Positions 17,516-53,952 of a DNA stretch of 64,000 bases are shown here, piece by piece. The stretch's first letter is position 1. Each line of letters opens with the position of its first letter. The notes beneath the pieces were generated by a model that was not told where the DNA came from, made no database searches, and worked only from the letters and a program-made list of their open reading frames with translations. Source of the DNA: Laetmonice hystrix (lineage: Eukaryota); NCBI GenBank assembly GCA_965235115.1, contig OZ249436.1, positions 31,994,001 to 32,058,000 on the forward strand. Direction: 5' to 3'. The translations under genes were made by a program, and so were the position numbers.

Positions 17516-17600
17516 CTTTACTGGATGTCGTTCACAAAAGTACGTTACTCACCTGAAAATAGAAACAGAAACAGTCAATTACATAAGTCATGTGCCCACT
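17516..17600 (-). other. Candidate recursive splice site (junction 17553|17552) with a 37-nt cryptic exon (17552-17516)
   Basis: Sense strand reads aattgactgtttctgtttctattttcag|GTGAGTaacgt. Downstream donors are AAG|GTCAGT (17515) and ATG|GTGCGT (17476). Confidence 0.7.
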
Positions 17601-20600: not shown

Positions 20601-20899
20601 TTCTGCGATTGTGAATCAAACTTAACTCCGACTCATTATATTATATACATGTACCTGTGGTTAAAGTCGTCAAGCACCGACCTATCAAGTGACACTGATC
20701 AGTGCATACAGCGGTTTGACGTCTGCTCACGTGAACTGTAACTAAAGGCCCGAGTCCGCACGCTACTTTATGACCGACTTCATGACTGTCTACACACTCG
20801 TTACCACCGACCGTTGTCTGTTAAAGGTTCCCGTCTTATTTTCTTCATGCATCAAGGACTCCCCTAACAAAGATACGGGCCTTGGCGGCGCTTCTCCAC

Positions 20900-21035
20900 C
20901 AGAGGCCAAGTTTTTCCAAACTTATCTTCTTGGTTAAGCTCAGGATCAACGCTTCTGATTGGCTGGTCTGCAGGAACCAGCTAATCAGAAGCGTTAAGTC
21001 TTAAGTTTAAGCGAGTTTTGAAAAACTGGTCCCTG
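20900..21035. mobile_element. Degenerate palindromic MITE related to 14742-14906
   Basis: Core aacgcttctgattggctgg...ccagctaatcagaagcgtt, imperfect ggccaagtttttc/gaaaaactggtcc ends, CAG/CTG flanks. Confidence 0.7.
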
Positions 21036-21144
21036 TTGTATTTCGTAACACAACGTCCCTGGAATCCGATCATCTTAGCATGTCCGGTGGAACACCATCG
21101 AACACCAGATGCTCAATTTAGTCCTACACTACAGTGTAAAAAGT

Positions 21145-21175
<31 letters not shown>

Positions 21176-23853
21176 GGTCTGCGAGTCTGGATCAACATAC
21201 GCGACCACAGCGCCATCTTTTTCTTCAACTGTCTGTATCAGCTAGTAACCAAATTTTCCCCACGCCATCGTATGTATTCATGCTGGCCAGTCTCTTTTTT
21301 CTTCACAGGACTTCACGTGCTATCCCATAGCACTAGGTACCCGGAACCACATCTTATATCAACTATTCAATATTGGCATAATTACCCTTTATATTAACTG
21401 CGCCGTAAATGTAAGCCTGTCGTAAGCAAGTATGAATTCCCAACTGGAGAACACCTGAGCACCATTGGCACTGCGAAGTTTGGAAAGGTCAGGCCAAACT
21501 GCAGCTACCAATACCACCTTAACAATTCATCATATTCCTTGGCTTGTTTTTTGGCACATCCTAAGCTAAATTCATGACACAGTGTTCTCATAACGAAGCT
21601 AATGTTTCCTCTTGGAAGATTTTAAACAGGCACTTCCTGAAGGCCAAATTTGCTTTTCTCTGGCAAAACTTGTAATTGGCAGTGTAGGAGGCATGCAATC
21701 ATGTTACTCTATCTCCAAAATAGTCTTCATTGATGTAAATTTAATAAGTAAACAGTCTAAACAAGCTGATTTGAGGCACTGAATCAAAGTGGAAAATGTC
21801 AATTTCCTGCAGTAGGAGTCCTGAATATGGACTCCATGTGTCCTGGTATGCCCCTTGCAATGCTATCTGATATACTTTACATCCCCCTCTACACGAACTG
21901 CATGAGCTCATATTGTCAAACTGTCACTGCTCCCCTCCACATCTGATTGGACCGACCGTCTGCAGCCGTCGGCGCCAGTGTTTACGTTTATATCAAGAAA
22001 AGCGCACAATATCATTTAATACCTTGTCCTGGACTCCCTCCTCCAAAATCCAGGGTCTTTTCCCGTATAAACTTAAACGGGGACGTTTCTCGCAATATTT
22101 AATTAGCAGCTGTCGAACATGGCCTCGGTTAAATGTACCTTGTTTCAGTTTATGTTTTAACCATGCAGCTACAAAAACGTGTTTTGAAGCCTTACCATTC
22201 TGTGATGCACTGAAGTGCTTTAAATAGTCCAACAGTAAACAACTATAACATCTATAAATATCTCGATATTTATTTTATGTGACCTGTCACTACCTTTGCC
22301 TCAAGATACATTTAATACTTGTGTCATTTATTATACTTTGCAGCCTCAGATTCAATGAGCGGTTTTACAAAAGTACAACTTTAAAATAGCAATATTTTAT
22401 CTCCTAATTATAAATAAAGAACGAAATGGAGCTCCAAAAATGTTAACGATGTGAAACTTAAAAATCCGAAATAATACTTCCCCTTCGCCTAAATCCTGCA
22501 CTGTCTTCACTACTGGCACATTGATTGTAATGATGGTAATATTGTTGATGACAACACGAACTCCACACCCAGTGGGGATAGGAACGCAGAAATAAGCGAC
22601 CATTTTTTGGCCATTGCAAGCTGTCTTTTATTCATTTATAATTACCGCACACCCCAAGCCATGGCGCTGTGCTGTGATTATGCCCGCCTTTCTGTCGGCG
22701 GCGCTGTCAGCCAACCTCAACCAGTGAAACCGTGCCTCCCCCTTCCTCGTCTTTCTCCCATGTCTCCTGCGACGCCGACAATGGTGAGACGTGGCTGGAG
22801 GAGGCGTCGTCGTCCCGCCAGCATCCATCTGCCAATATCTCATTCTTAACCTCAGACAATGACAACTAATCAGGCAACAGGCTCGCCGCCACAATCATAA
22901 GTGTGGTCCGCCGCGCAATACCTGCGATATCTTGACAAGAACAGGTAGTGTACTAATTTCGGGACAATGTCAGACTGCCTGTTGGCATTGGCCATCTCCT
23001 GTTCAGATTTATCCAGCGGAGTGGGCTGGAAGGAATTAGCTTATTCATGAACGGAGGAAAACGTCGCTGTAACGAGCACAGGCTAGCGTTACAAAATACG
23101 GAGAGGTAGTCTGCAGAAAGATTTGGACTGACTCGAGCAGTGAGATGATTGGCGAGATGTGGCTAAATGTCTGTCTCGCCCCTGTCCCTTTGTTTAGAAT
23201 GAAGAATATCATCCCTAAAAATAATGATTTCATCAATAAATAGGGGGTTTCCCCACTCTGTTTGCTTCTATTATCTAAGTGAAAATGTATGGCAATGATA
23301 AATTGTATGCATAGTGATGATACTTTCTGGCTCCGCCACACAAAGAAGAGAACCTTATATCCAATCAAATATATCTGAACTATATCAGAAAGCATCTTTC
23401 TATTGTATCTCAGAAATATGACTTCAAAATCGACAGCACCCACAGTGCTGGAAAAAAATGCCTACCGTTTTTACGTTAGGCTACACTCACAAAAAATGAG
23501 ATTTCACAAAGAATTTCAACATTAAATTTTGTTTTTGACTATATCTTTGCGTCCCTTTTTCGACAACCGTCAAAACCTGGGTATTGCATCGAGTTTCATA
23601 GGCCAGGGTTGGGGGGGGGGGGGAAACGAATGATACCGATATTTTAGACCCCGTCATCACATCTTATACTGCTGCCTGCTGCAGCTGGCTGATCCAATCA
23701 GTAAGCTTGTAACAACCAGCCATCAGGCGAACCTTCACGCTAATGGTTCCGCTGCCTCAGGTACGTGATCTGAGGGCAATTCGGCCACTCTTCCTCGGCC
23801 TCGCATCACGGGTCTCCCAAGTATCACCCAGAATGCCTGTCACGACAATCGAA

Positions 23854-24095
23854 CTGCCCTTATTCTAACATCATTCAAACTGCATCCTTTTGGCTGCCCT
23901 TATTTTAACGTCATTCAAACTGCATTCTTTTGGCTGCCCTTATTCTAACGTCATTCAAAATGCATCCTTTTGGCTGCCCTTATTCTAACGTCATTCAAAC
24001 GGCATCCTTTTGGCTGCCCTTATTTTAACATCATTCAAACTGCATCATTTTGGCTGCCCTTATTCTAACATCATTCAAACTGCATCCCTTTGGCT
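23854..24095. repeat. 40-bp minisatellite, about 6 copies
   Basis: Unit ctgcccttattctaacatcattcaaactgcatccttttgg. Confidence 0.95.
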
Positions 24096-24494
24096 ATCGC
24101 TTCTGTTGTGAGGTAAGGTCGAAACCTTGATAATGTCCACACACAAAATAAAAAAAGAAATAAAATTCAAGCGCTGCTTTAGAGTCTTGGCCATGGAAAA
24201 CGACAGGGACCAAGGCAACACTGTCTCTTCTTGAACATCTTACAAATCACTGAGGGAAAACAGGTCGTATGTTGATAAACATCTAGCCTTATTACGTTCC
24301 AAAAAAACCGCGACGAAACCACTGATACGGTGGCCCCACCAGGTGTGCCGACAGAATGTGCCTGACGGGGCGAGAAACCAATTAAAGCAAGGCTTCTGGC
24401 GTCGTGTTGGAGCCGACAATCGGCTTCCACTTCCCCGCTACCTTCTAATGACACATGTCTTCTAACTTACAATCAGACCGTCAGACATTATATT

Positions 24495-24815
24495 ATAGGG
24501 TGGGCATAACAAAAATTGTCGAACTTCGACGTCAAATATTTCAAAAACCATACGTCACAAGCTTCTGAGAGGTTATAGGCGTAAATACCTTGATGTTCCT
24601 AACATTTCTTGACATTTCCAAAATGATATGTCAAAAATAGTCCCTCCATGAGATCAAGTTGAACCAGGTAGGACGTTATTACAACTAAATCAGGAACAAC
24701 ATTTTTGAGACACAATTTTAATTTAATTCACATCTAAGGACAATGTGAGATATCAACATGAATATTTCAACAGATGTTTAGCACACGAGGTTTTTTTAAA
24801 TGTCCACCCGATATA
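24495..24815. mobile_element. Possible decayed Tc1/mariner-type MITE
   Basis: Ends tatagggtgggcat and atgtccacccgatata are imperfect inverted repeats with TA flanks. Confidence 0.35.
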
Positions 24816-26001
24816 AGAACTTCTTCTTCAAGTACACACGTTGGTCTATGTCGGTGTAATTAGGATTTGTAGACCCAGACGTAAAATAATTATAAGGGAA
24901 AGAAAAAGATAGGGGCATACATGTTGTTTGTAGGTTTAATGTCTCGGTGGCTCAGGATGACATGCCATCAGTTTAGAATTGGGCCAGCCTCGGCCTGCGT
25001 GCGGACGTCGTGACTTATTACTGTCTTCAGACTAGAGACAGAGAAACACCAGCCGCCACAACCGTGCCTTTTTGGTCGTGCAAGATTAATTTTACAACGT
25101 ACAAATCTTGGAATTCTGATCTTTGCAAACGTAGACAGAGCAAAAGAACCCATCATAACTAAACAAGAAAAATCGTCACAAGCACCGACCAACAAGAATG
25201 CAGTGACGGGTATGATTTTTGTCAATGTTACTTTATTTCAGATTCTTTCATGCCGTCTGTGAGCACTGCTGTGAAGCGAACCTTTTGCTATCATTGAGCA
25301 CCGACAAACAAAGATGGAATTACCGACGCTATTTTTCACGAGAAATCACTACTTTATTTCATTGGCAATGCCTTGGGGCCCTTCCAAATATGGGAACGCG
25401 CTTCTCAGATTGTGTGCCATTCTAAATGTTGATGTTCAGGCGAGCAGGCGAGCAAGATTTAAATAATTTCAAGAATGATAGGATGCAGTCAGCTTTTTGT
25501 GAAGGTTATTGCAGAAAATCTACGCTTTGAGAGAAATCGACTCGTTTTAATGTTTACCCTCTGCTGTTACAGCATATATGTGGAGGAGACTTCTCTCAGG
25601 CAAAGAACAGAATTAACCTCAACTCTTTCCTTTGACCCCTTCAGGAAATACTGCGAAAATTGGACAATCCCTTTTATCCGGACAAAAACCTTTAAACCTT
25701 TTAAATGAGATTTGTCTAATTTAATTTGTCCACACGCAATATTTTGCCCCTTTCTCTGTACTGAAAGGTCAGTTTCCCATGTAGTTAGATCGGTCCCCAC
25801 ACGGGGGTGCCACTGACACATTTTGGTCTATTTATAGGTCGAGGATCAATGGCATTCGAAATGCAAAATCAGAGGTCAGTTGAACTGGAGGCCTGAGAGC
25901 ATTCCCACTTGTTCCAACAGGTATAACAGTCAGTCCTATAGATTTCTTGGAGTAACACCCAAGGTACGACACAAGACGGTAGACCAGAAACAACGATTCG
26001 T

Positions 26002-26250
26002 GTTCTTGAGCTGTGAACTTCCATGGTTCTTGAGATGTGAACTTCCATGGTTACTGAGTTATGAACGTCCATGGTTACTGAGCTGTGAACGTCCATGGTT
26101 CTTGAGCTGTGAACTTCCATGGTTACTGTGCTGCGAACTTCCATGGTTACTGAGCAGTAAACTTCCATGGTTGCTGAACTGTAAACTTCCATAGTTACTG
26201 CGCTGTAAACTTCCATGCTTACTGAGCTGTGATCTTCTATGGTTACTGAG
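26002..26250. repeat. 24-bp minisatellite, about 10 copies
   Basis: Unit gagctgtgaacttccatggttact. It explains the 8-aa periodic ORFs on both strands. Confidence 0.95.
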
Positions 26251-29200
26251 AAGCCAGAGACTCCAGGTTTCAAAACTTTAATACCATGAGAAGACATGGA
26301 TCTAATTTTTTAAATAGTTCAAACAATCTTAACAAATGCGTTTTAAGATTGTAAACTATAAGATAATTATTAATTTTCCTAAACTTATCTCTAACGGTGA
26401 TGCTTTAAATCAATTCTAAATACCATGAGTACGAAATGCCAACGTGCATAAAACCTTCATAAGATTATTTTGACATGACGATATAATAATTCATATGAAA
26501 ATCAATCGAAACCATGGGACACTGCAGTTGCTATTTTCGTCCTGTGGACGGCGGTCTCAGCTCATACAAATCAAGGCCTAGGGGGCCATCGTGTGTCTGT
26601 GCCACTGTGAATCAGATGACAACCCATCTCAATTCACATAAAGATGACGAAGGTTGAGTAAACTACATGGTTTATTCTCGTGTTCTGCTTCCCGCAGTCG
26701 GTGATCTCCGACCGCCGCCGGCACCGTGGGGAGCAGGAGGAGGGGAAGGAACAGGAGGAGCGGGAGCAGGAGGAGGAGCAGCAGCAGCATCCATCACTGC
26801 CGTCGTCCTGCCGGCTCGCCGAGCTCGGTCCGCCTGTGACAGTTCTAGGCCGGAGCTCGCCGCCAATAAGACGGATCACACACCGGTCCCAATCACACTA
26901 CATGTACAGCTAGACACCCGGCTCCACGACGACGACGGCGACTAAAGACAACGACAACGACGTATCTCTCCGAGAGCCCTCCCGATCTAATACTCATCCC
27001 TATGATGGAGAAACTTGCCAATCCCTCATCCTCCGTTCATCAGAAATCTCAAGGTCTCATCTTTCAATGTTTATGGGAACACACTGAGAAAAAACAGACA
27101 AGTTGACACACATCCCGCATTTAGGAAAATCTCAAGAAAACAGTCCCTGCTGTCTTCAATCCCCTCAGAAAAAATACTCTCCTTCGGTCAACAAGGGTCT
27201 GTGTTAGCTATCTAAATGTTCCCGATTCAGTAAAGCTGCCATGAGTTATCATCAACTGTTTTATGTGACCGCGATTATTTACACCAGCATTAGGTTATTT
27301 ACATCTATCACGCCATATTTGCTCTTCAGTCTATTTGTATTGAATTTGTCATGTCTACTCTGATATCTTTGTCTGAAAGTTATCCTTAAACTTACAATAA
27401 TAACAATATATAAATCCTTGTCTTTATTATGGTACACAAATTTATGTACACCTCCATCCAAGTCATATTTTACTATACCAGATATAAAGTATGGGTAATT
27501 TTGGTCATCAAACGTCAGTCCAAGTTATTCTGAGTTAACTATACGTGTACTTTAAGATTCCTAATTTAGAATGTCCCTACTTTATGTAGTTACTCTTGAC
27601 GGAGGCAGCAAACCTTCTTCCTCGGGTTCCATCTTATTGTGTTACTTTCAAAATGACCCGGTGTTTGGCGATCTTTGCGGTCCCTTCATCATGGACCTGT
27701 ATTACTCCCAGTGCAGCTGGGTGCAGCTCATCTCACCCGTACATCTCTTCCTACCATCTTTCTGATTTGAGAAGTCAAAGGTATGGTGATGAAGTGCTTA
27801 CAGGGACTTACTACACGATGATTCCAAGAACTGAGGTTCCTTTTCCTATCGACCAAAATTTACGTTTATATTACCAGACTACACATACCTTTCTTATCAT
27901 TGATGCCCATAATGATAACGATTCTACTACTGAGGGGCAAAGTCACTATCATTAATTATACAAGTGATAGATCTTCAGGGTGAACAAACTGATATTGAGA
28001 GGTGTTTCCCAAAAAATGACCCTACTTGAGACTAATTACACTAAGACAGAAACCCCAGTAATTGCTCAGGCGTTGTACTTTAGTTTGTATATTCGTGGAG
28101 CACACCTACACGTAAAACAAATTTGTGCACGATACAGGCACAAACATGTATGACTTGGTGATCATTTTAAAGATTACGGGCAATCGGACCTGCATCAGAA
28201 AAACGTCCCTCATCTTCAAAATAACATCCTCCATGGTACAAAGAATGTTTGAGCCAATTTGTATGCCTGCAGCATGACTTGCGCCTTTTTTCTTGTTAAA
28301 TTCTAACTCTAACCTGTTAAGTTTACAAAATAAGACAGTTCTTAGACAGGGCTAACATGACACTAAGAGGAGACTCGAACGAGGGTATCATATCCTGAGC
28401 CAAATTTATCAGAAGTAACTTGACTAGGCCAGCAGGTGTTTACACACAAAAAACTACCAGACCCACACGCTAGGACGAAATGGGCAAAACACGCTCGAAA
28501 CGAACATTCGTTCAAAACTGACACCATTGACATCAACCATGGGAGGCCACAGTTGGCTTTGACGCCTCAATGGATTCAACGCTTGTGAATGTTTCATGTT
28601 GTCACAGCAACAGTAGGCCACTACTAAAGGATGCGGTAAGCACAGGATAAACAGCTTTCTCTCTCTCTCTCGCTCAGGGTCGCACAATTGCAGTGATTAT
28701 TTGCTTAAGGGAGAAAGCTATGTATGCAGAGTGCATACACTAAAAAAAATTTGAGGAAAGGACCTTTCATTGTATTGGTATTTCCATAAAATTGATAACT
28801 TTGAGGAATTTACTGATATGATCCAAAATCTCGACACAGTTATGATGATACTGATGTCTAGACGTTTTCCAGCTATCTTTCTCCCTTACAAAGGGCACGT
28901 AACTACCAAGCTGTATCAATATTATTATCAACGCGAATATGGACTGTGTGGAACAAAATAGAAGATTCCACTCGGAGAAGCCACAAACAAACCTGACCAA
29001 ATATATGACAACCAGGAGTACGGGTATTAGCACTAGCAACACCTACTAACTGACCCAGATGTGTAAACCCTGTATCGACCCATAAATATGCTTCTGATGA
29101 TGATCCCCGCAGTAAAATCAATACATCTAACATGACGGCAAAACCGATTACGTCCCTGTTTATATATTACTCACGCAACAAAGATTCCTTTCATGAGAGA

Positions 29201-29563
29201 ACCATATAAATTGGCCTTTCCTAAGTAATGGTTTTGATGTATAAAGCTGTATACTTTAAGCTGACCGTTTTTTTAACATGAGACATCAAACACTGACTGC
29301 ACTTAGAAGGAGAGGTGAGGCACACGAAGTCCTGGCCGTACCACGAGTACAGACAAGACCCCATGGATCCTGTCTGTACGTTGATATTTAACCACTGGCT
29401 TTACCGACGTCGGGACGCCAGGGTGTCAATAGATCCCTTTCACCTGAGTAGACTGTGTAATCAGACACACCGCAAAAACCACTGTTGTATATTTCAAAAC
29501 CCTTCACTCTACTATCCCTACGGGTTCAAGCATCTTTTTTATTCACCCACTACGAAGCATTAA

Positions 29564-30043
29564 AGGGGCATATTATGAGGAAACGTTAAAAATCGGTATT
29601 TCATAGAACTTTTGCTGTTTTCATAAAGAGATCCTTCATTAAAATTGCTTAGTAAACAAAGACAGTCTTATCAGTTTCATTTTGCGTGAGAAATCGAAGT
29701 TTATTAAGCTCCCTTGCCCGCTTCTCTGCCAATTTTGTAAAATATTTTTTTCTGATGCCGGGCGATCGAGTGCCACTGCTGAATTGTTTACAACTAAACA
29801 AAGCACGTGACTAAGCACATTACACGGGTTGATGGGGGGTTGTCCGCCAAATTATGGCGGGAGATGTGCTATCGGGAGAAATCTATAGGTTTCGTCGTAT
29901 AGAACCTACTTGTGCTGCATACGCAGCGAAAACACGTCGGAGGGCAAAATGCTGTGGTAGGATTATTTACTTGGATCCCTAGTACACGGTCATGTTGGAT
30001 AATTGCCGGAAATCCTCAAAAACGTGTTTCATAGCATGCCCCT
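29564..30043. mobile_element. Non-autonomous DNA transposon with TTAA target-site duplication (Kolobok-like), 480 bp
   Basis: ttaa|aggggcatattatga ... tcatagcatgcccct|ttaa. AG..CT termini with a TTAA duplication fit Kolobok better than piggyBac. Confidence 0.8.
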
Positions 30044-30256
30044 TTAAGGTTTTGATAAACGATGTTCAAATACAGCTGGGAGCAACTGCAGCCTATTGAT
30101 TTGACCCTATTATACCAAGCTGTGTCCCTCCGGGCATCACAGCGAGTGTTCGGTTATCCAACACCTCTAGTTTATATCCAGTTGGCCACCTGTGGGTTCT
30201 GAAATAAAACGATGTCTGTACAAATAGCAAGGGCCTGTAGGACGTTTGAGCGAGTG

Positions 30257-31038
30257 GGACCCACAGACTGTGTCTGGAAGGTAATGGGAGACTTAGAGAG
30301 GATGGTTCAGTACGGTTCTGATGACACCTCCTGATATATTGCCTGGGTCATGGTGATACTCCAGTAGGGTCAGCACCAGAGACTGTCACCTCATAGACTG
30401 GTACAGGTAGGACCACCCAAGGACCCACAGACTGTGTCTGGAAGGTGATGGAAGACTTAGAGAGGATGGTTCAGTACGGTTCTGATGACACCTCCTGATA
30501 TATTGTCCGGGTCATGGTGACACTCCAGTAGGGTCAGCACCAGAGACTGTCACCTCACAGACTGGTACAGGTAGGACCACCCAAGGACCCACAGACTGTG
30601 TCTGGAAGGTAATGGGAGACATAGAGAGGATGGTTCAGTACGGTTCTGATGACACCTCCTGATATATTGTCCGGGTCATGGTGATCCTCCAGTAGGGTCA
30701 GCACCAGAGACTGTCACCTCACGGACTGGTTACAGGGTTACAGGTAGGACCACCCGAGGACCCACAGACTGTGTCTGGAAGGTAATGGGAGACTACAGAG
30801 AGGATGGTTTAGTACGGTTCTGATGACACCTCCTGATATATTGTCCGGGTCATGGTGACACTCCAGTAGGGTCAGCACCAGAGACTGTCACCTCACAGAC
30901 TGGTACAGGTAGGACCACCCAAGGACCCACAGACTGTGTCTGGAAGGTGATGGGAGACTTAGAGAGGATGGTTCAGTACGGTTCTGATGACACCTCCTGA
31001 TATATTGTCCGGGTCATGGTGACACTCCAGTAGGGTCA
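30257..31038. repeat. About 164-bp tandem repeat, about 4.7 highly similar copies
   Basis: Unit start ggacccacagactgtgtctggaaggt at 30257, 30421, 30585, 30758 and 30923. Confidence 0.96.
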
Positions 31039-31242
31039 ACATTAGTGACTCACTGTCACTTTACACTACTAATAATCAACCACGGTAAACCAGTGTAATA
31101 CAGACACTAAATATCAACTTGTCACCTTTCCTGCCAAGTGTTACTACTACCTTTCTGGGAGATTATTCACAGTGATTTGATAGTGTCACGATTACACATG
31201 CTACCAAGATGTTTCCCGGCCAAGCCTCTTGACAAAAGGTTA

Positions 31243-31373
31243 GGGCAGGTTCACACTGCGGATTTCCCCTGGGTAATATCCGGGTCAGGGGTGGTGAGCT
31301 GTATGTGAAGATACCAGCTCACCACCACTGACCCGGGTATTACCAGGGGAAAATCCTCAGTGTGAACCTGCCC
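31243..31373. mobile_element. Palindromic Harbinger/Tourist-like MITE, 131 bp, TTA target-site duplication
   Basis: Termini gggcaggttcacactg and cagtgtgaacctgccc with about 60-bp arms. TTA on both sides. Confidence 0.92.
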
Positions 31374-31817
31374 TTAGGCTTGACAAAAGGTTAACGACGG
31401 CAGGCCGAGTTTAAGGGCCTGGAGCCCTCCAACATCACGAGGGCCTGAAGACAGCCAATCGAACCACCGCCCAAATATCACGCTTCACTTCAGATAATCT
31501 TTTTATTTGTAGGGGGAGGGGATGGCAGCTGCATCAGACTAAAAATAGATTCCTCGCTACACTCGATCTCATTTCCTGCACTCACTCTAAATTGTCATTC
31601 CAGGTCTCATCACGATTTCTAAGTGTGTTCAATCAGTGCTAATGCTAATGCTTCGTTGGCCTCTTGAATTTTCATCTGGGTTTCACCTTCAGTTCACCCG
31701 ACTAAATGTCAATGTGTTTACTTTGCCTTCTCGAAACTAGTATCTCATTCAAAGTGACAACCTTTCCGTCGTGTTACAAACAGGAGAAGTTTTGTGAATG
31801 CTTACCTAAGACGGAAC

Positions 31818-31988
31818 AAGCCGACCGATGTCCTAATCATGTGACTGGTATTTTATGTTTTATTGAAATGGTCAGTACGGAGAAAATACTCACGACCCTG
31901 AAAGCCGACCGATGTCCTAATCATGTGACTGGTATTTTATATTTTATTGAAATGATCAGTACGGAGAAAATACTCACGACCCTGAAAG
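31818..31988. repeat. 84-bp direct duplication (2 copies)
   Basis: aagccgaccgatgtcctaatcatgtgactgg...tactcacgaccctga at 31818 and 31902. Confidence 0.93.
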
Positions 31989-32017
31989 ATCTTCAATCAT
32001 ATAGGCCTATTACTTAC

Positions 32018-32115
32018 CACAAAACTGAGACTCGGCTTTCTTTGCATCGAATAAAATAAACGTCACTCACCTGAAAGATAAAAGAAATTATCACAAATAA
32101 GATATGGTTAAAGTG
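32018..32115 (-). other. Candidate recursive splice site (junction 32071|32070) with a 53-nt cryptic exon (32070-32018)
   Basis: Sense strand reads ctttaac (branch-like)...ttatttgtgataatttcttttatctttcag|GTGAGTgacgt. Downstream donor GTG|GTAAGT at 32017. Confidence 0.75.
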
Positions 32116-32376
32116 AGGTAACAATATTCAATGTTTGTAGCCATGTCGGCTAAAATATAGTGAGATAATACATTTCTATCTTCTTCTTTTTTAATCATAG
32201 TGAAATTACAGGTATAGATTATGTACCTCTAAAAGGACAACACTTGATATTTCTGCAGATTATTTTGCAGATCTTACTTACAATGATACACAAAATGACA
32301 GTTGGATACGCATCCCTAGTTTATGGGGTGCTGCGGGCCACAGAGACAATTGCCACCGTGGCCGCAACGCCGACCC

Positions 32377-32786
32377 ATACTGTTGCTATATTATGTGGGA
32401 CAGACAGACCCAATTCGAATCATCAATATACTGTTGCTATATTATTTGGGACAGACAGACCCAATTGGAATCATCAATATACTGTTGCTATATTATTTGG
32501 GACAGACAGACCCAATTCGAATCATCAATATACTGTTGCTATATTATGTGGGACAGACAGACCCAATTGGAATCATCAATATACTGTTGCTATATTATTT
32601 GGGACAGACAGACCCAATTCGAATCATCAATATACTGTTGCTATATTATTTGGGACAGACAGACCCAATTCGAATCATCAATATACTGTTGCTATATTAT
32701 TGGGGACAGACAGACCCAATTCGAATCATCAATATACTGTTGCTACATTATGTGGGACAAACAGACCCAACTCGAATCATCAATAC
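32377..32786. repeat. 51-bp minisatellite, about 8 copies
   Basis: Unit atactgttgctatattatttgggacagacagacccaattcgaatcatcaat. Confidence 0.96.
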
Positions 32787-33581
32787 ACAGACAGACCCGC
32801 TTCGAATCATCAACTGCTGCGGTTGAGGATACTACATGTCAGTATATTGTACAGACGCCACCAGTGCCATTTAATATGCTTCTGCCCTCAATGTTTTTTT
32901 TGGCATTTTTATTCTACCTGTCTGGATGTTGGGGTTAATGTGATTGGGTGGTAGGAAGACGCTAAAAAACAATTCTTTTTACACCCTAATATTCCGACTC
33001 ACACACATGTATACATAATACAAACATAATGCAAATGGGTATACCGTTGTCAATTAGGTTAACAGCTTTACATACTCCAATAACTAGGTTCACTTACTAC
33101 ATGAGGATTTACGCTACCAGAAAAATATCTGATTGACCTGTAAGTTCCACTACACTGTCCAGAGCTGGAACTTTACAAACTGCAAATGCAAAAAGTGTCT
33201 TGTCCAGCTCTAACGGATACTTTGGATATTTTATTTTCTAAACAAGATTTTCAGAACAATGAATGTGTTTTTTTACAATTTGCTCCTAAATATGCAAGCG
33301 ACCGTCACCAGGGAAATACGGTTCTGTTCTCATAATAATTTCCTTATCAAAAGGCTATTATGAGAGAAATGCTTGCATTTTACACCTTTATGGGTTAAAT
33401 TGGATAAAGACAATCTTTCATGATACTTTTGTAAGAAAATGTGAAAATGTGTATTTTAAAGCAGAGTTTTGTAAGAAAATGTAAAAATGTGTATTTCTAA
33501 ATATTTGCTGCATTGTGTAATACAATTATGCCATCAAAACTGAACGGCAAGCAAAGATGAAGGTACCCCTAAAAATTACTT

Positions 33582-33763
33582 CTGGGCCCGGTTTTTAGTT
33601 CGTCATTTTACCAATCTTAAGACTGGGATTTTAAGACTGACTTGTGTTATGGTCTCTCATTGGCTGACTTCATTTGAAGGACCAATCAGAAGCTCTGAAA
33701 CAAGGGTTCAGTCTTAAGATTTGAATCTTAAGACTCGGTTTGCAAACTAAAAACCAGGGCCAG
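33582..33763. mobile_element. MITE (Harbinger-like, CWG flanks); inverted partner of 7659-7832
   Basis: Termini ctgggcccggtttttagtt and aactaaaaaccagggccag, with internal tcttaaga palindromes. Confidence 0.87.
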
Positions 33764-34989
33764 GGCTTTTATGTTGCACTTTGCTCCCACTGCGGCCAGA
33801 CACATTTTGTTAATCTTTACCCCGATTGCCACCTCTTCTGGGCCTGGCGATTAAAATGCTCCTACCGGAAGTTTAAATGGCAGATTCAGGTTTTCCCCCT
33901 GGACCTTATTGCAACCCCCAGGAGCATCACGATCCGAGGTTTGGCAACCACTGTTCCCACATTCCTCCTTGAACATTTTTCAACATGGCCGCGTGATGTT
34001 TTCACACCCATCGGAACCCATGACGTGATTGAAGTAGGACGATGGGACTTTCCAGACGAACCATTAAGCAATGGCGGCTTATAAACGGCCCAATCCTGCC
34101 TTCAGAGAAGTGTCGCATGTAGAACCAACACTGTACAGTCTTCTCTCGGCTCTATTACTGTGGCAGAGATCCGTCATGAAATAACATGAGCCAAGCCTCT
34201 CTTCATATCCTGGCGGCTCGCTTTGCCAATCTGCCCCTGTCAATGGTTACAACCTGCGACCACTGTCAGTTTCTACCACCAGTACTCCGGTACCTGCGGG
34301 TATTACGGAGGATTACCAGTCTCCGGCCGGGTAAGCTTGGGGTGGGCTGGGGGTATTAATCCTACCAGATCACCCGCACACTCCCCTGGATTTCTCTAAA
34401 TCCTTATCACGGTCCACCAGAATCAATGTTGCAATATTGACCAAATAAAGGCGGTGGATTAGAGGAGACTTGGCGTGGGGGTTGAACTGTGCGGAATATT
34501 AGCCTCGACCATCAGACCATCAATCTCTGTCACCCAAACCAAGTCAATCTCACGACATGTCTCATGAATCGGGCAGGTTTGTGGCAAACAACAAACCAGA
34601 CCTGATCGAGTCGAGTTTCCACTGGAATAAGGTTTCCTATGGAAAAAAACCGATATCTGTGGTCGGGGAAATATTCTAGGAAAAGTCATCTTGACCTACA
34701 AACATGTAGGCCTACCCCCCAATTATTAATTTCTCGTCCACCCCAATCCTATAATAAATGTATTGCGTATATATTCGTGGTCCACATATCATCAGCATAT
34801 ATTACTTGGCCTGTATTATAACCTTCAGCCAACGAAACACCCTATACTTATTCATATTCTATTCATATTTAACACAAGTAAAACATCTTTTATACATTAG
34901 CTTTTATCTAATACGGTACATACAATCTGCCTCATGTTTTCATATTAACCGTACATTCATCAGACACTGGCAGGCCGACATGAACAGTT

Positions 34990-35270
34990 CAGTCTGATCC
35001 AACAACGAGAATAACCCTTTCAAGTGAACAAAATGGCTTGATCCAGCAAGAGGAAACTGATCGGAAGGCAGACCTAATGATTTGATCCAACAGGAGGCGG
35101 ACAGTTGAGCGGGCGGACGAAACAAGCCGATCAAACAAGTGTCTACCGGCGGAGCCGACAAACCCACTGCTTCGATCCAGCAGGGATTTATTCAGCAGCA
35201 GACTTTATGGCTTGATCCAACATGGTAACCGTTCTGCAGGCCCAACATGATGGCTTGAGTCAACAGGCTG
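34990..35270. repeat. Degenerate minisatellite of about 43 bp
   Basis: A (g)gcttgatccaacagg-like motif recurs about 6 times at roughly regular spacing. Confidence 0.55.
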
Positions 35271-37685
35271 ATAACTATTCTATGAGGAGACTTGATGCAA
35301 TAAAGGCACCTTCGTCTCCGGATCTAAGATGGCCTCCTGGATGACGGGGGTGGATGGTTCCTGTGGGTTTGTCAGCTCCAGGTTTGTCAGAGCAAACATC
35401 GCGACCGCTGACAAATACAACCTGCCACCGTGGAGCAGGGAGGAGGAGGAGGAGGAGAAGGAGGCTGTGGGAGGAAGGGTGTGCACTCTCCTCCTCCTCC
35501 TCCTCCTCCACGGTCTGACCTTCCCTCATCCTCCTGCTCGCTGACCCACACGTTATTGTCTGTATCGTGCAGATTTGCATGGTTTTATGTCTGCAATATT
35601 CAATTTCCTCCTTTTGTGTGCTTGACAGAACACTTGCATGCATTTGTATGATAACTGCCCATTCTGCCCCATGCTTGGTTGAAGCCACTTTCCATCACAT
35701 TCATATTATTCAGATGTGGAGCACTTGACTGTGAAATGGGAAAAATGTGCACCAGTAACAAATGTAAGGCCATAAAACCAATGTAAACTATTCATCATAG
35801 TACCAGTGCTGAGAGAAGCGGCTTAATTACACTTGCATGAGTGGCAAATATATGTTTGATGACTTGGCTCTATTTTTGACTCTTCCTTTTTACGGGACCT
35901 GATACTAGTCTATAGATCAATAATTTGGCGGTTTAGGTCTGTCTGCTATCTCCATCTACATCCCGCTCGTCTGTCCGCTCTGCCGTGTGTAGGTGTGTGT
36001 GTGTGTGGGGGGGTGCATCCATTCATCTGGCTTTGATCCCACCCAGTGGAAAGCTGTGATCGCGGCCTCGTGCTGCAGGTATCAAGCCTCCGGAATCACT
36101 CACCCGTTGGGCTCATTTTCAATTACAAATCCATCAACACTCCCTTCCTATCATCTCCCCCCTCCCTCCCCCCCCCCCAACCCGTGTCTCTAAAGATGGA
36201 CGAGGCGATGCCAATTTATTCTTCATTATCATTTCTGTTTACCTATGACAACCTGCATCGACTTTGTTACCATTTTCTAATTAATTCCATTATCAATCTC
36301 TCCTTGGTGTTAACGGGTACCGACCCTGAAAAACAAAACCTCTGGAAAACAATTACTCCCGGGCGTTATCTTTTCCTGGTGGCACCCTCGCCAATCCCTT
36401 GATGAATTCGGAATTATGATGATATTGACCGATAGCGATGACCACTTCTGCCTCCCCCTACAATCTACCCATGGACTTCTGTTCTCATCTGACACGCGTG
36501 TTTACCCAGCACTAGTGTCCTGAATGGCCGTGGGTGGCGCTGGCGTTATTTGTAATGCCACCTGGGTGTGGTCAGGAACGGTAAGCCCAAACAGCCTACC
36601 AGTACCAACCAAGGACGGCGACCCTACCTTGATTTGAGACAGATCTCATCCCGGAGTGCACTAACTGAGGCTGCTGTACACAGCAGGCGCTAATACCCGA
36701 CAAAACCCGAGACCTGTCACTGCCTGTCAGTGTCAGCAGTCGTACACCTCCGACTTGATATATTAGCCAATGTATAGCACGGTAGTCAACATCTGCCAAC
36801 GATCATCTTTTTATACGATAGGTAATGGTACACTAATGTATCACAGTTCAGTTCTGGGAAAAAAATAACCAACATACTTTTGAAGTCTATTCTCTGGACA
36901 CTGTTTGCCAAATGCAATCTTTCTACCTGGTTGATTTTAACTGGAATCCTGGTTTTGTTTTCTAACCATGGGTTCATACAGTACTGCCGACATAAAGTCA
37001 GCATCCCTAGCAAATGTTGTTTGGTTTCTATACTATATTTTAAAATGGAAATAATCTGAAGAAAGCAACTATGGTTGCAAGAGAGGGCATAACCATGGGT
37101 TTACCCAATCCTCCAAGAGCTGACAGCGACACACGCAACAGTTGATGGAATGCCATGAACCAATCATCCCGAGGGACAACGTGATATTTTATCAAACTGA
37201 CCTCTTAATAAGGTCGAGGTCACTCGAGGGTCATACAAAGATGAAACCCCAGGAACTCTCACGTTGCATTGCAAAGCCGCTCGCCAAGCCTTGGAAACCC
37301 TAAGATTCCCAATCTACCACATTTTTCCCCACCAAGACAATCGGTAAAAGGAGCCTGTCTACTGCCCAACATTCTGCTCGAGCGTGAGCGGCGCAGCAGA
37401 CCTTTCGCCCTTCCAAGACAGCCACTACACCTTAAAATCCTCTTCAGAACTGACCCCACGTTTCTCTCCCTATGAAGGCCAAGTTTTACATGCCAAAACA
37501 GCCTCGCGTTGTTCCACTAAGTGCCAGCTCTCACGCCAAGAACCGATACTCACCCTCACCAGGCCCTCAAACAGGCCACACACAGAGGGCACACTTCATA
37601 CCACCAGGCGTTTCACACCAGCGGCACAGAGCACACACTCCAATTCACCTGTCCAACCACACTAACTGGACACAACACATACTAT

Positions 37686-38078
37686 ACACACCCCAGTCTA
37701 ACAGTATCCCTCCATACACAGCGCACACCCAGCCCAGTCTAACAGTATCCCTCAATACAGGACACACCCACCCCAGTCTAACAGTATCCCTCAACATACA
37801 GGACACACACACCCCAGTCTAACAGTATCCATCAACACACAGGGCACCAGCCCCGCTCTAACAGTATCCCTCAACATACAGGGTGCACTCACCCCAGTCT
37901 GACAGTATCCCTCAACATACAGAACACAGTCACACCCACCCCAGTCTAAAAGTATCCCTCAACACAGCGCACACCCAACCCACCCAAACAGTATCCCTGA
38001 ACACACAGGACACGCCCAACCCAGTCTAACAGTATCCCTGAACACACAGGACACACCCACCCCCGTCCAACAGTATCT
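37686..38078. repeat. 40-45-bp minisatellite, about 9-10 diverged copies
   Basis: Core accccagtctaacagtatccctcaaca with variable CA-rich spacers. Confidence 0.93.
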
Positions 38079-41000
38079 CCATGTAGGGAAATTCAAGGCG
38101 TCAGTACACATGGCACATACTTCGGCTTCATCGTCTCATATATCGTTGAAAATATCCTGCACAATTTCACGAGATTTTCGGGTGTAGTAAATGAAATAAA
38201 GTCTTTAATTACTCTTTTTCATTTCCGTTATACTCTTTTCGCTACCTTGTATGAAATAAGAACATGATTCAAGAGCCTATAATGCTATAATCAAGAGGTA
38301 ACCACCAGTACATTGTATACGTTACTCGCTGATCATGAATGCCCGCGGTAACACGCCAGTATTAACCCTCGCTGGAATCCACTCCCCATTACCACGGCCA
38401 TGAATAAGATACACTACGAATGCGCGAGATTTCCATTCCACATATGTCACTTTCCCCCCTTCCTATTCTCGTTTTAAACAACTAATAGTGTGAGCCAGTA
38501 AATCCTCCATCAAAGATTCAGCTTTACCGGTCGTCCAAACTCGTCGGGCCTCAGTTTACCATCTTCTTGGACTCTGTCGCATTGTTAATTATCGTCCAAT
38601 TTTCCCAAGTTTTCCCATTTGTTGCCGCTGCACTGTTTACTCAACTCCCGAGTACCTAATAAATTCTTGCATTCTAGCATTCTATGGATGACACACTGCC
38701 AATGGAAATATTGCTTTTCAGTGACCAGCGTATTTGCTCTCAGTTTTCCTTGCCCGGTGGATGATTAAACTGGACGGCTACCCCAGGGGATATGTGTCTT
38801 TGGACCGTAGTACTTACACGGGGCCCATCCTGGCGTATCTCCACATAGACAAGTCGCAAATGACTCCTTGTAACTTTAGCAATTGTGATTTTCGCTATGG
38901 CTGTACAGTTACAGTTAGAGTAGTCCCTAATTATAAATTTCGTTAAGTACAGTAGTTGATTTTATATGATCGTTAGCACAACCTGGCATATCAAGTAATC
39001 ATTAGTGAGGACAAAGGAAAGATATCCCCAGTCAGTAACACTGACCGGCTATCTTTCGGTGTATCACTTTTTGTAACTGCCCTCTAACAACAGATCTCAC
39101 TATCATCACTGTGTTTCTGAGTCCCTACCTTTGGAGATTTGTCAGGATCGGGGCCTGCCATGGTAATCATTATACCAATTGATTATCAAATTACCAATCT
39201 TTATACCGCTTCTCAAGGGGAAGACTATCTTTGTTGTAATCTCAACATCTAGACGGCTACAAATTCCAGTCAAAATATTGAAAAGAATGTTTTGAAATGT
39301 CCTTCGTTGTATGTGCAGTGAAAATACCAAATCATATTTCGATGTGGGGCAATCCAACAATAACCGAGTTTAAAATAGGAATATTCAGTTAAAAATGGCG
39401 GCAATCTATTAGATTCCCGCAGAATTAGTCATCCTGTTATATTATTATATTATTTATTACAAGAATACTTCCTCCCACACTGACGGTTACGAGTAAATGC
39501 ATTCCATGCGACTCTCAAACCTTCCTTACTCAAGTCTAGATCAAATCTGGTTATTGGCTGTGCAATAACGCATCACACTTTTAAGTAGTCTATCTTCTCT
39601 CCCAGCTCAGATAATGAAGGAAGGAGCAGCCGTTTACGATTTTTAAGCTCTACTTTTAGGAACATTTGAATTGTTTGGGTGTTAACCTATTCATGCAGAA
39701 TTAATGAAAACGTTGATTCGGAGAACTGGCACGCAGATGTCTTAAGTGCACATTCTATGTCATCGTTTTTCGTCTCTATTCAATAATAAATCACCGTTTT
39801 TTTGAGTGGGCCTCGCTTCCTGTTTTTACTTGACGATCCCCTTATATACATACGCATACAGACACAAGCGATAACCTAAACACACAACCAGTACTCATAG
39901 AGAGCACCGATGGTGACGAGATACAAAGAGCCCCTCCATCTTTCGCTGCAGTCAATGTACCAGGGAATGTCTGACCAGGCAGGCAGCGGCCCGCACGCCA
40001 CCAACGCCTGCCACCTTCTCGACTCCCTGCTCCCTCCCAGGATAAGGTTTCTCGGTTTCCACTTGGGAAACGTCCGATATCCTCCGGGCCTCTTACTGGA
40101 TTTCAAACCGAAAGAACCCCGTCTCTTGGCCGTTAGGAGCTTTGAGTCTATTCTTAGTAGCCGGTTAGCCACACGGATATTTTCTCTGGTTCCTCTGGGT
40201 ATGTAATGGAACTAACAGATGAGAGCTCAATAACGCAAGAGCAACGAACAATTCATCCATTAATGTTTTTTATAAAGCACCATTTCACACCACAGAAATC
40301 CCTTTACAAAAAATTATACACGATTAATCACTTCACTTTCCACCGGGAAACTGTCTTGGTGTCGCCTTTTCCTCCAGAGGAAGAACCCCTCTATTGTACA
40401 TTATTTTTAATTAACGTTCAACCCTCAAATACAACTAAAAGTAGAAAAAAACTTGAACTGATCGTATTTATCTTTACTATTTCTACCAATAACCCAGTTT
40501 TTGATGTTTTTCTTTCATTAAGCAAGCCTGGAAGTCCGGGGAGGTGGAGCAGAAGCCAAGGCTGAACAGCTGAAACCCTTAACATCAAAGCCGGTTTGTT
40601 ATGTAAGTCTGTGAGGTGTGCACCGGCGCATCACGGCTGGTACGTGCGAGCGAAAGGTCAGACTCTAAGTGACTCATCCAGCCATCTGCTCCCTTCGCCA
40701 GCCCATCTTATCTCAGCCTCCCAGGACCCCAGATCATGAAGGACCCTCTATATACAGGTGGGTGAGGATGCTCCTGAGGCAGGCGGGAAGGCGGCCTGGC
40801 GTGCGATACAGCACCTCATCACCTCTGCTCATCTCTTGTACGTTGCGCCTAGGTTTGATGACCAAGGTGAGTGTGTACTAAGGCCGCTGCCAATTGATGG
40901 AGATCAGGCTGATGGAGCTATCACCCGCCTAGCAAGCCGACTACAGCGCGGCGGCCGCGGCTGAAGCAGCAGCTGCTGATGCTGTTGTGAGGCAGTGGCC

Positions 41001-42513
41001 GTCGTTAGATGCCAGAGCAGCATGTGATGCGGACAGCACTCATCCCATTAATATGTCTGCAGGCACCGGGGGCTTCCCAAGTCTGGCTGTTGCTAGGCAA
41101 CGGTAAACTCTGAGCCTGTGAGGTGAGGAGGCTGGTGAGGATTGATGAAGGAGGCAGAGACGGTGAGCCGGGAAGGTGGGGACTAGACAGCCGCGGGGAA
41201 GGCAGAGCAGGATGTGGCGGGAAGGTGGGCCTCCGTGGCCTCCTTATAAGGCGGCCACGTGGGGCGGGCCAGCGCCCTGTGATTACTACTACACGGCCCG
41301 CCTGGCCCCTCGACCGGCCGGCCGGCTCCCACCCCACCCAACCCCCTGACGTTCCCAAATCGTCTAACTGATGTCTTCATCACTCCAAATGACCATTCAC
41401 TCACCTTGACACCACCAATCCCACGGCGCGGCAGTATTACTGAGATAATTTGTCAGAAATAAGAGAACAAGATATCGCATCAACCGTTCACATGTCCGAA
41501 CCAATGAGCTGTTATATCAAAGTCGTGCACAGATCGGGAGAGTGGCGCTAATAACTACCACCCAGGGAGTATAAGGTGAAACAGACTACCTCAATCACGT
41601 CCCATGAAATCATTAATAAACTGGATTAGAAGCCCTGTGCAGCGTGATATTTCCTTAAGCAAACACCAGCAAGGTGAGGGTTAATATGTACCCATGCCGG
41701 TCAGACTTTAGTTGAGTATGACGTAATATATAGGCCTAGCTCATTGTATTCATTATATAACCGCTGTAACCCGGTCATTTTTAGCTTCTGTCCACTTGTC
41801 TTATAATTAGGTGTAGTAAAAAATTAATCGCGTCCCATGACAACACCGATTTATATATTAACCAAAATGGCCACTAAAATCAAAAATGGCCACCAGACAA
41901 CGTCGTGACGTCACCAATGGTCATAATGACCCGTGAAGATAAGGGCAAGTATTCAGCAAGACAAACCGGTCCTCTGACCTCTTTAATTCTATTAACGAAC
42001 AATACAGCTTTGGTCACATTTATACAGCATCATCCACATTTCTAAAAAAATATATATCCCGAAAAACAATCTTCGAAAATCAACACCTTATCAAAATGTG
42101 TTAACCTATCTGGAAAGCCACTTTCTGTTTCTGTTTTATATTCACTGACACTCGACCGAGTCCTCACAAAAAGAAAACTCAGACACAAATATCCGGTTTC
42201 GCCAACAAAAACTGGGGAGAATACCTGAAGTTCACAAGACCACGAGACTGATAGGAAGTCAGGAGCCTTGGGTCTTGTGACATGTTTTTGTCGGTATGAT
42301 CTGGCGGGTCAGCCGCCTGCTCATAGCTGACCCGGGAAGAGCCTCCCCCCCCCTCCTCCGCCCGCCATCTCTCGGTAGGCAGCATGGCCTACAGCTGAGA
42401 TGCACCGGGGTGGCCTCATTTTTCTGTCCACGGTGATCCCATACCTGCCGGGTGAGCAGAGTAAGAGCAGGGTGAGCAAGTGAACGGTCACAGAACCCAC
42501 CTGTGTGTATCAG

Positions 42514-42657
42514 GTGTGGTGGCTGCGGCGGTGGTGGTGGCGGTGGCGGTGGTGGTGGTGGTGGCTGCGGCGGTGGTGGTGGTGGTGGCTGCGGCGGTGG
42601 TGGTGGTGGTGGCTGCGGCGGCAGTGGTGGTGGTGGTGGTGGTGGTGGTGGTCCTGG

Positions 42658-42711
<54 letters not shown>
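42514..42711. repeat. Compound triplet repeat: (GGT/GGC)n followed by (TGC)18; (CAG)18-(CAC/CGC)n on the sense strand
   Basis: Read directly from the sequence. Confidence 0.97.
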
Positions 42712-42713
<2 letters not shown>

Positions 42714-45700
42714 CTTCCTGGATTCCACCCCCTCTCTTTTTGCCCAGACTTTACCATCCGCTGTTCAAGATCTCTTCAGGTTAAGTGGGAGGCCAGACGT
42801 GCCAATGCACCCAGTTCTTCTCCTTAGGTCACTCCACCCCCATTCTTCCTCTGCATATTGGCGGCCCGATATTTACATAAATTGTTTCTCTGCCACTCTA
42901 TAACAAGGCCACATTTTGCGGCAAACAAAGTGCAAGCAGCGACAAATTTTCTTTGTCTACCACTTGTTCGAAATTACCGAAAACGCTACAAGTTTCCTAT
43001 TTTACTTCAGTTCAGTCAATTGTTACAAGACTTCAATTTACGGACGTTACATAAATGGCAGTCACACACTTACTTTTTCCTAAAAAAATACGTTATAAAT
43101 ATTACATCCTTTCTAATATTCCATCCTCTTCTATTTCCTAGAATTCCGGCTTATTTCGTCCAATGTTTGTACTTTTGTAAATCTCAATGACGGTGCACCT
43201 TTTAGGCTGAAATATCCCGATAATTACGATGCGACCTCGTTTTACATCCATGGATTCCGCCATTTTCATATTATACTATATCATTCAGACTGGCTGGGTG
43301 CCCATATATTTGCCGGTATATCTGACCAATGCCGGGTTCGGCTTAGTAAATCAATCCTACGCCTCGTCTCTCAGTCAATAAACAATATCTGAAGTCAATC
43401 CCTGCCATCCCAGGCATCAGCCAACAACATTACGGGCGACCCTTGATACATTAACATGGCAAGGCCGCACCTGGGCGTATGATACCTTTGTAAGTGTTAT
43501 TGAACCCCTCATCAAATTCACCCTCAACAGATGGCTTTTCTATCCTAATCAATCCTGCACTTATCTACAGGTCCCACCTGAAACATAAACGTGCCGGGCT
43601 GTGTTTGCAATCTACGGTACACGCAGCAGTATGTACCTGAAGCTGGTCTCATGACAATGGCCTGCTTCCCAAGCCTGTACAAAAAGCTAGCTGAAGGCCA
43701 CAATAGGCTTCATTAACGGCGAGTAGTGGCCGCCTCGTGCGCTAACCCTGCTCCAATGTGGCCCTTGATCGGACTGCACTAATCACGTGCGTGCCGCCGT
43801 GTCACTATCCCTTTGGTATCACACCATGAAAAAGGGCGTGGGGGAATATTAACTGTAGGGGTTGACAAGTTAGAACCAAACTTCAAACGCCGCGGCTTTT
43901 CTAACGGAGCCTGGGTCACAAAGACAAAGGCGAGCTGGGGTCTAAGACAGCCACCATGTCTGCGACTCAACCTATAACATTGCCGTGTGATTCGGCAGCT
44001 TGAGTTTCTATGCACTGGAAGCAGTTTCGATCCTACAGCCCTCTGAATTGACTGACTCTCAAAGAACCCATACACGACGTGCACCAACGGCACCAAACGT
44101 TATTCTGTATCAGTGTATGTCAAACGGTACGTTCAGTCACAACAAATTTATTTGCGTTGATACAAGAATGATTCTCATTTTTATATATCCCACTGACTTG
44201 CCCCTCATGATCCATATAACAGTGTCCGTCTCCATGCGACCCAGCCTTATACCAAAAATCCTCATGACACAAAATCTACTCCCCACATCAGATCGTCCCT
44301 CCACTGCCGCCATCGGTAACTGTAATCTCCCGTAGCTCCCCACATTGCAGTGAAAATCAATTAACCCAGTTTGGCTTCAATAATCCACTAAAAACGGGAT
44401 CTTCGCCAGATGAAAGTCCCCTGGCATACACGCCGCCTGGTGGTGGCATTCACTCGACGTGTTTACCTGTCACAATACAGACTTCCGAGAGAAGATTTTG
44501 TCCAGCACCAAATCTGGCCTGAGCGTAGGTTTGCTAATCACCAGTGGTGCTGGCCAATCGAGGAACCCTACTTCTCCAAGAAAACGTTTCCATACTAAAA
44601 GCTGGTTTGCTTCGCTACTGGAATGTGGGCTGACAGATGTTTACTTCGAGCTGGCCTAACATTGAGGAGGCTAAGTGGTCAAAGAGAGCCATAGACACCC
44701 AACAACCAACCGACCATCCAAGTGTCCATAGCCTAGCGACTCGCCATTTGTCGATACACTCCACGGCAGCAATGTTTCCTCTCATACTCAATGACGCCAT
44801 CTATTATATTATTCAAAATAGTTGTTTTCCAACCTTAGCAAGCCAAGATTGACCATGTCATCACGCCAATACTGATTACTTCGGCTAAACCCTTAAAATG
44901 CCATGACACGGAGGGAGATGTAGAAGATTTGCAAGTCTTTTGTAATTTTGGGCATTTGTATTTTGCAAACATGAAGTATTCACCCATTCCTGTTCCAATG
45001 ATTTAAGGCCATGATTTCTCATACTTATAAAAGGGTTCCAGAAATTATAAACTTACTCCTAGTGGAGACCTGGAGGTCTGTATGTTTAATTGTGTCTGCC
45101 ACGGTGGTTCTTGAATCTGATGTGATCAAAACAACTTACGCGAACTCAGTGCATCTTGATCAACCTTGGCAGTCGTGCAATACTAGAGAACATTCCCCTC
45201 CCCCAAACTACCATCATTTTCTCCATCCTGCAATGCCACTGAAGTCCAATACAGCTATCAGACCATGTACAAACCCCTCCTTGTGCCCTCCGTGCCCCAT
45301 CATTTACAAAAACATCAAAGAGATGATGAAGTCCGACAACAACCGCCACATCTTTAATCGACATTCAAAAGACCTTGAGCTGTAAGATCTCTAACCTTGG
45401 CCCTGAGAAGAAATCGCCGGATAGTTTCTTGCAGCTGGGACAGCCGGCACCGGGCCAGCAGCTGCTCCCGGACACGGCCACCTTGCCCGACATCAGCAGC
45501 AGTCGAGCATCTGGCAACAGATGCAGGGCTCTCCCCGTCTTTAGTAGAGTTTGTACCCGCAACATCCAAAACAGGTAATCCTGGCATCTCCTGGTCTAAA
45601 CAATCCCGCCACAGGCAAACTGACTTATTTCAGTAAGATAGGACCCCATTATTTTCAATTTTTCTTTTCCACACTGATATAAACCCATGTCATGACACGT

Positions 45701-53874: not shown

Positions 53875-53897
53875 GCCGCCGCCGCCGCCGCCGCCGC

Positions 53898-53952
<55 letters not shown>
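53875..53952. repeat. (GCC)8(GCT)18 triplet repeat; CAG/CGG-type on the sense strand
   Basis: Read directly from the sequence. Confidence 0.97.

Follow-up and report, generated by a model that had tools for sequence, protein, structure and literature searches.

Intron 3 of a CaMKII gene contains, at positions 32071/32070 of the window (the whole 64,000-nucleotide stretch of DNA analysed here), a candidate recursive splice site, or ratchet point, accompanied by a cryptic exon of 53 nucleotides. We consider it likely that the site works as a ratchet point whose exon is mostly skipped. The broader proposition, that 32070 is a used element of the recursive type, with an exon that is either mostly skipped or mostly included as a poison exon, appears highly probable. 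The intron itself is probably removed stepwise, in the manner of long fruit-fly introns, and the existence of a genome-wide class of sites with the ratchet layout is well supported by its sequence signature. The features on which the argument turns are collected in Table 1.

Table 1. Candidate ratchet points of CaMKII intron 3 and neighbouring coding exons, in window coordinates
Feature	Position	Strand	Remarks
tttaac, branch-point-like motif	32107..32112	minus	candidate branch A at 32108 (position -38); matches YTRAY; putative branch use
AG-free zone, 77 nt	32073..32149	minus	seen in sequence
Polypyrimidine tract and CAG acceptor, ttcttttatctttcag	32071..32086	minus	second-best of the 3,756 sense AGs of intron 3, with a score of 10.4
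GTGAGT abutting the acceptor (tttcag|GTGAGT at 32071/32070)	32065..32070	minus	putative donor regenerated after the joining of exon 3
Cryptic exon, 53 nt, not a multiple of 3	32018..32070	minus	predicted
Downstream donor GTG|GTAAGT, GT at 32017, ending the cryptic exon	32012..32017	minus	+53 from the acceptor
CaMKII coding exon 1, starting at ATG	60662-60598	minus	tblastn
CaMKII coding exon 2	60168-60074	minus	tblastn
CaMKII coding exon 3, 60 nt, terminal TAG, upstream partner	58648..58707	minus	tblastn of stored homologues
CaMKII intron 3, 57,633 nt, phase 1	1015..58647	minus	exon mapping
CaMKII coding exon 4, 55 nt, downstream partner	960..1014	minus	tblastn
Sister candidate ratchet point: ttgac branch-like motif, tract, CAG|GTGAGT at 17553/17552	17516..17580	minus	top acceptor of 3,756
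Weaker downstream donor AAG|GTCAGT of 17552	17510..17515	minus	U1 pairing -6.5 kcal/mol

All the elements of the candidate site lie on the minus strand of the window. A preliminary description of this DNA, which left the strand unstated, had listed a tttaac motif with its A at 32108, an AG-free zone of 77 nucleotides, a tract, GTGAGT, and a GTAAGT donor 53 nucleotides further on: every one of them is present. The excerpted text of PMC8605326 describes the fly layout as a tandem of acceptor and donor, with a cryptic RS-exon whose own donor is found about 50 nucleotides downstream. At 32071/32070, the acceptor directly abuts a donor in the form AG|GTRAG, and GTG|GTAAGT follows at +53. Acceptors were scored with a matrix trained on 17 host-gene acceptors, which considers positions -20 to -3 only and is blind to the bases past the AG. 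The score of the 32070 site, 10.4, compares with 1.6 to 10.1 for the 17 training acceptors, and its AG-free zone with zones of 15 to 77 nucleotides at the same acceptors; a YTRAY motif stands at -38. Finally, the site is located within a long intron, in sense orientation, both site and gene being on the minus strand.

The 251 bases around the site have a single match in the assembly (627 Mb in 35 contigs), in a search that passes over common words. Contigs from three sequencing runs of one sample and one study, of unrecorded kind, cover all 30 bins of the interval 17200-32500 with an even depth outside repeats, as with DNA, and neither splicing nor constraint can be read in them; among the 15 joints and 18 loose ends listed for this interval, none falls at 32070, 32018 or 17552. 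Repeats border the site on both sides (31818-31988 and 32377-32785), namely an 84-bp duplication and a 51-bp array of 8 copies, and a weaker AG|GTAAGC, ranked 142 and without a downstream donor, is found at 31805.

The neighbourhood also offers material for a reading in which the junction has a single role: CAG|GTGAGT would be the donor of an upstream exon of 79 nucleotides, whose acceptor would be at 32150, or the acceptor would open an alternative last exon ending after the AATAAA at +122 or +206. There is indeed an AG preceded by TTTT at 32151-32150, and AATAAA occurs at +122, +206 and +563. The acceptor at 32150, however, obtains a score of 0.2 and ranks 245 of 3,766, the 79-nucleotide exon is without an open frame, the first two AATAAA belong to the 84-bp tandem duplication, and both variants leave the donor at +53 unexplained, all of which makes a single role very unlikely. 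The possibility that an alternative first coding exon ends at 32070 was rejected by eye, since the in-frame stretch upstream hits a stop before any ATG.

The host gene was assigned from several matches. CaMKII coding exons 1 to 5 were mapped within the window by tblastn of stored homologues, the top solved-structure matches of an exon in the flanking DNA are CaMKII, and the CaMKII association domain lies about 60 kb past the window, on the same strand. CaMKII has a neuronal role. Over its first 317 residues, the protein shares 91-96% identity with proteins of molluscs, annelids and nemerteans, and 88-92% with those of insects; the comparison was confined to the kinase and regulatory part because the exon model loses its frame in the linker, after about residue 317, with some linker-exon boundaries being wrong. 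In a tree that contains no deuterostome or other outgroup and does not assign the gene to a phylum, the protein falls in an open fork shared with sequences of annelids, nemerteans and molluscs, while those of insects are placed elsewhere. The second-longest modelled intron of the gene has 13,987 nucleotides, compared with the 57,633 of intron 3, and G exceeds C on the CaMKII strand in 28 of the first 30 two-kilobase bins.

The preliminary description called 32070 the strongest ratchet point. This stands when the full layout is considered: no other site of intron 3 combines a tract, an AG-free zone, a branch motif and a GTRAG at +30..70. It does not stand for the acceptor alone, since a sister site at 17552, with an AG-free zone of 44 nucleotides and a cryptic exon of 37, has a slightly better score (11.4 versus 10.4). 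These two acceptors are the best of the 3,756 AGs on the sense strand of the intron, and GTGAGT directly follows both, when a GTRAG follows only 5 of the 3,756. If ranks were random, the probability that both top AGs are followed by GTRAG would be about 1.4e-6, in what is a post hoc test. The antisense strand has 3 AGs out of 3,098 that score as high or higher (11 or more), none of them followed by GTRAG, and its best AG|GTRAG ranks only 457. No AG|GTRAGT occurs in six further introns of the gene, which measure 6-14 kb.

Could such an arrangement be due to chance? A functionless T-rich stretch may happen to end in CAG ahead of GTGAGT, with a GTAAGT nearby; the antisense count indicates that strong acceptors alone do arise randomly, and 32070 was picked as the best site of a 64-kb window. 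On the other hand, the same intron holds two such sites, both in sense orientation, and none of 150 fourth-order Markov copies of intron 3 reaches even the first and loosest feature level. The Markov model is short of pyrimidine runs and probably understates chance, and we therefore gave more weight to control patterns taken from the real genome.

Four main patterns were compared. Class A, defined by Y10-N-YAG|GTRAGT, has 66 matches in the genome, all of which were examined, and which yield 63 distinct sites once near-duplicates are collapsed. Control class C is its purine-tract version: 14 of the 54 matches were left out (13 tandem copies and 1 repeat copy), and the remaining 40 yield 39 distinct sites. 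In control class D, the donor is replaced by the non-donor |GTRACT; 5 of the 25 matches, in poly-C, were left out and 20 were examined. Class B, a looser pattern with one purine in the tract, is the one that includes 32070; 6 of its 36 matches and 32070 itself were left out, and the other 29 yield 28 distinct sites. Class A outnumbers its |GTRACT control by 66 to 25, and by 43 distinct sites to 12 when at least 6 T are required in the tract, but raw counts alone are only modestly telling because the purine-tract patterns give 54 matches (two tandem arrays accounting for 13) and, for the GTRACT counterpart, 26. A gapped version of the pattern, with 241 matches versus 114 for its control, was swamped by tandem repeats and set aside.

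The surroundings of the class A sites were then compared with those of the controls. At +30..70, a range set after a first look at the class data, GTRAG is found in 24 of the 63 sites (background 0.07, binomial p=3e-12), versus 4 of the 39 purine-tract sites (Fisher p=0.0016) and 1 of the 20 GTRACT sites (p=0.003). This peak is unique: the other non-overlapping ranges of 41 nucleotides hold from 1 to 12 of the 63. At bases that the search did not select, these downstream donors have a G at -1 in 17 cases out of 24 and a T at +6 in 18 out of 24, for backgrounds of 0.23 and 0.24. A branch motif occurs at -45..-16 in 33 of the 63 sites (background 0.24, p=1e-6), and the AG-free zone has a median of 37 nucleotides, versus 22 in the GTRACT control (p=0.002). 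With cut-offs that are post hoc (at least 6 T in the tract, at least 35 nucleotides free of AG), all features come together in 13 of the 63 class A sites, and in none of the 20 and none of the 39 control sites. The cryptic exons of class A have a median length of 48 nucleotides, and 31 of the 43 T-rich sites have flanks in which G exceeds C, as on the CaMKII sense strand. Neighbouring pairs of exon-like segments were seen around 7 of the 63 class A sites and 9 of the 39 purine-tract sites (p=0.16), with a crude exon finder that recovers 9 of 16 known exons. Strong downstream donors at +35..+65 also accompany other candidate ratchet sites, among them L027, L034, L035, L044, L102, L106, L119 and L120.

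Class B, to which 32070 belongs, presents a different picture. Its raw count is 36, versus 28 for its control; downstream donors are found in 5 of its 28 sites, which is not an enrichment (p=0.21), the branch motif in 5 of the 28, and all four features in none of the 28. By eye, 17 of the 28 sites examined are T-rich, versus 5 among the 28 control matches listed. Since this excess of T-rich tracts comes without an excess of donors or branch motifs, class B is probably a mixture that contains many chance matches. The lack of donor enrichment in the site's own class, as well as the 25 and 28 genome-wide matches of the control patterns, thus speak for chance; the absence of the full layout from both sets of controls speaks against it, and we hold an accidental origin of the site to be quite unlikely.

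If 32070 is a ratchet point, its operation can be pictured as follows. As in Drosophila and in the vertebrate model, from which the whole order of steps is borrowed, U1 bound to the donor at 32017 would define the 53-nucleotide exon and recruit the acceptor at 32071. The two candidate sites would split the intron into segments of 26.6, 14.5 and 16.5 kb. The joining of exon 3 to 32070 would remove the first of these and create the donor TAG|GTGAGT, with a TAG instead of the genomic CAG because exon 3 ends in TAG. This donor would next reach across 14.5 kb to the sister site at 17552, and a last step of 16.5 kb would lead to exon 4. Under this proposal donors are reused step by step, and therefore neither cryptic exon would normally remain in the mRNA.

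The reading as a ratchet point, put forward in the preliminary description together with a regenerated donor that outcompetes the downstream one, is favoured by the mid-intron position, the co-oriented gene, the Drosophila layout, and the enrichment of the layout class in the genome; the competition between donors, for its part, comes out as a near tie. Pairing with U1 was estimated with a U1 5' end taken from the same genome and a crude duplex model in which the register is not fixed. At 32070, the regenerated donor obtains -11.4 kcal/mol versus -10.7 for the downstream donor, the own donor of intron 3 being at -10.5; at 17552, the two values are -12.2 and -6.5 kcal/mol. In all 24 class A sites that have a downstream donor, the donor at the genomic junction pairs with U1 at least equally well, a result that is due in part to selection and uses the genomic, not the true regenerated, context. 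With such near-equal pairing at 32070, skipping of the exon is therefore plausible but not assured, and some leak to the donor at 32017 is likely because both donors are of similar strength.

Transcripts that leak in this way would carry an immediate stop. Translated after exon 3, the 53-nucleotide exon reads Gly-Glu-stop, which ends the kinase at residue 75, and inclusion of the sister exon likewise gives Gly-Glu-stop, with the same last residue. This immediate stop rules out a coding microexon in CaMKII, and a premature stop on inclusion is what characterizes a poison cassette exon. One can conceive that the segment acts mostly as a poison exon that is included: the downstream donor would win often, or under regulation, the stop after residue 75 would send the CaMKII mRNA to decay, and the initial GTGAGT may serve as an off-switch, as in expressed RS-exons. 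The close match between the donor at 32017 and the regenerated one is in line with this, as are the stop itself and the frequent inclusion of mammalian RS-exons reported in the excerpted text of PMC8605326; that 14 of 29 exon lengths of the class are divisible by 3 is a hint that some are expressed. An ordinary poison exon needs no initial donor, yet both top acceptors of intron 3 have one; moreover, the downstream donor of the sister site is far weaker than the regenerated one, and the 24 class A comparisons, subject to the selection and genomic context just mentioned, go the same way. We regard a mainly included poison exon as unlikely, and keep the mostly skipped exon of a ratchet point as the preferred reading. 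More speculatively, the balanced donors at 32070 might work as a switch, tunable between full-length CaMKII and a transcript destined for decay.

On sequence criteria, 32070 fits the Drosophila intronic ratchet points, of which it is a candidate member, and probably works like them. According to excerpts of PMC6110457, 63-70% of the Drosophila introns over 40 kb hold ratchet sites, often near their midpoints. The fly ratchet points with cryptic RS-exons described in the excerpts of PMC8605326 and PMC6110457 (Ubx-RP, kuz, Bx) share with 32070 the tandem acceptor and donor, an intron over 40 kb, a near-central place, a very strong acceptor, a donor about 50 nucleotides further on, an out-of-frame cryptic exon, and recurrence across the genome. 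They differ in that, in these excerpts, the ratchet donor is generally stronger than the donor of the cryptic exon, whereas the two are almost equal at 32070. The host here is also a non-insect, grouping with spiralians, and its site is known from sequence alone. A search of the fly recursive-site supplements for CaMKII, with the names and identifiers tried, gave no entry.

The RS-exons of long neural genes in vertebrates (Sibley 2015; Blazquez 2018, as cited in the excerpts of PMC8605326 and PMC6110457) resemble 32070 in their exon-definition layout and in the premature stop that inclusion produces, and CaMKII, given its neuronal role, is a comparable host. According to the same excerpts, no more than nine intronic sites have been definitively noted as fully suppressed in mammals, in which RS-exons that are included predominate; the class described here, in contrast, is of the short-exon intronic type, has at least tens of sites, and is visible from sequence alone. 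A computational survey (PMC2773006) reports that RP sites are enriched in the large introns of insects and sea urchin, with, as here, a sense-strand excess of fused acceptor and donor motifs in large invertebrate introns; in the part of it excerpted, the table contains no spiralian, and downstream donors or cryptic exons are not examined. We found no title or abstract on recursive splicing in annelids, molluscs or spiralians, in a literature search whose coverage leaves most subscription journals outside. We suggest, tentatively, that this genome could use exon-defined recursive splicing of the Drosophila type at tens to a few hundred sites, two of them in CaMKII intron 3.

The mechanism of recursive splicing being already known, a single site such as 32070 is unsurprising: what it adds is the lineage, and a signal at the level of a class in the genome of an invertebrate that is not an insect. 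Confirmation by RNA would make it likely that the exon-defined ratcheting of long introns is an old bilaterian feature; together with insects and vertebrates, ratcheting with short cryptic exons would then be found in the three main bilaterian branches. CaMKII provides a simple test case: a single intron carries both sites, and loss of the regenerated donor is predicted to yield a product with a stop.

A few observations concern the gene and its surroundings. Over positions 1-64000 of the window, the sense strand of CaMKII is richer in donor hexamers than its complement, with 25 GTGAGT versus 5 and 15 GTAAGT versus 6. Neighbouring exons are presumably annexin-like (L004:9234-9665, minus) and KLF/Sp zinc-finger-like (L010:6098-6811, plus). 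Exon 6 of CaMKII exists in two tandem versions of 73 nucleotides, 100 nucleotides apart and with differing peptides (L013:4386-4631, minus; -5369..-5441 and -5542..-5614 relative to the window). Mutually exclusive exons 6A and 6B are described for mouse and human CAMK2D in the excerpted text of PMC12060085, and the arrangement is either ancient and shared, or the product of a repeated duplication. Within intron 3, a very high-copy element occupies about 29560-30030, where the summed contig depth is approximately 10,000 times the single-copy level; by eye, its ends are imperfect inverted repeats bounded by TTAA, as in a MITE. The intron also contains long triplet runs (GGT, CTG, GCC, GCT), at 42530-42711 and 53875-53952.
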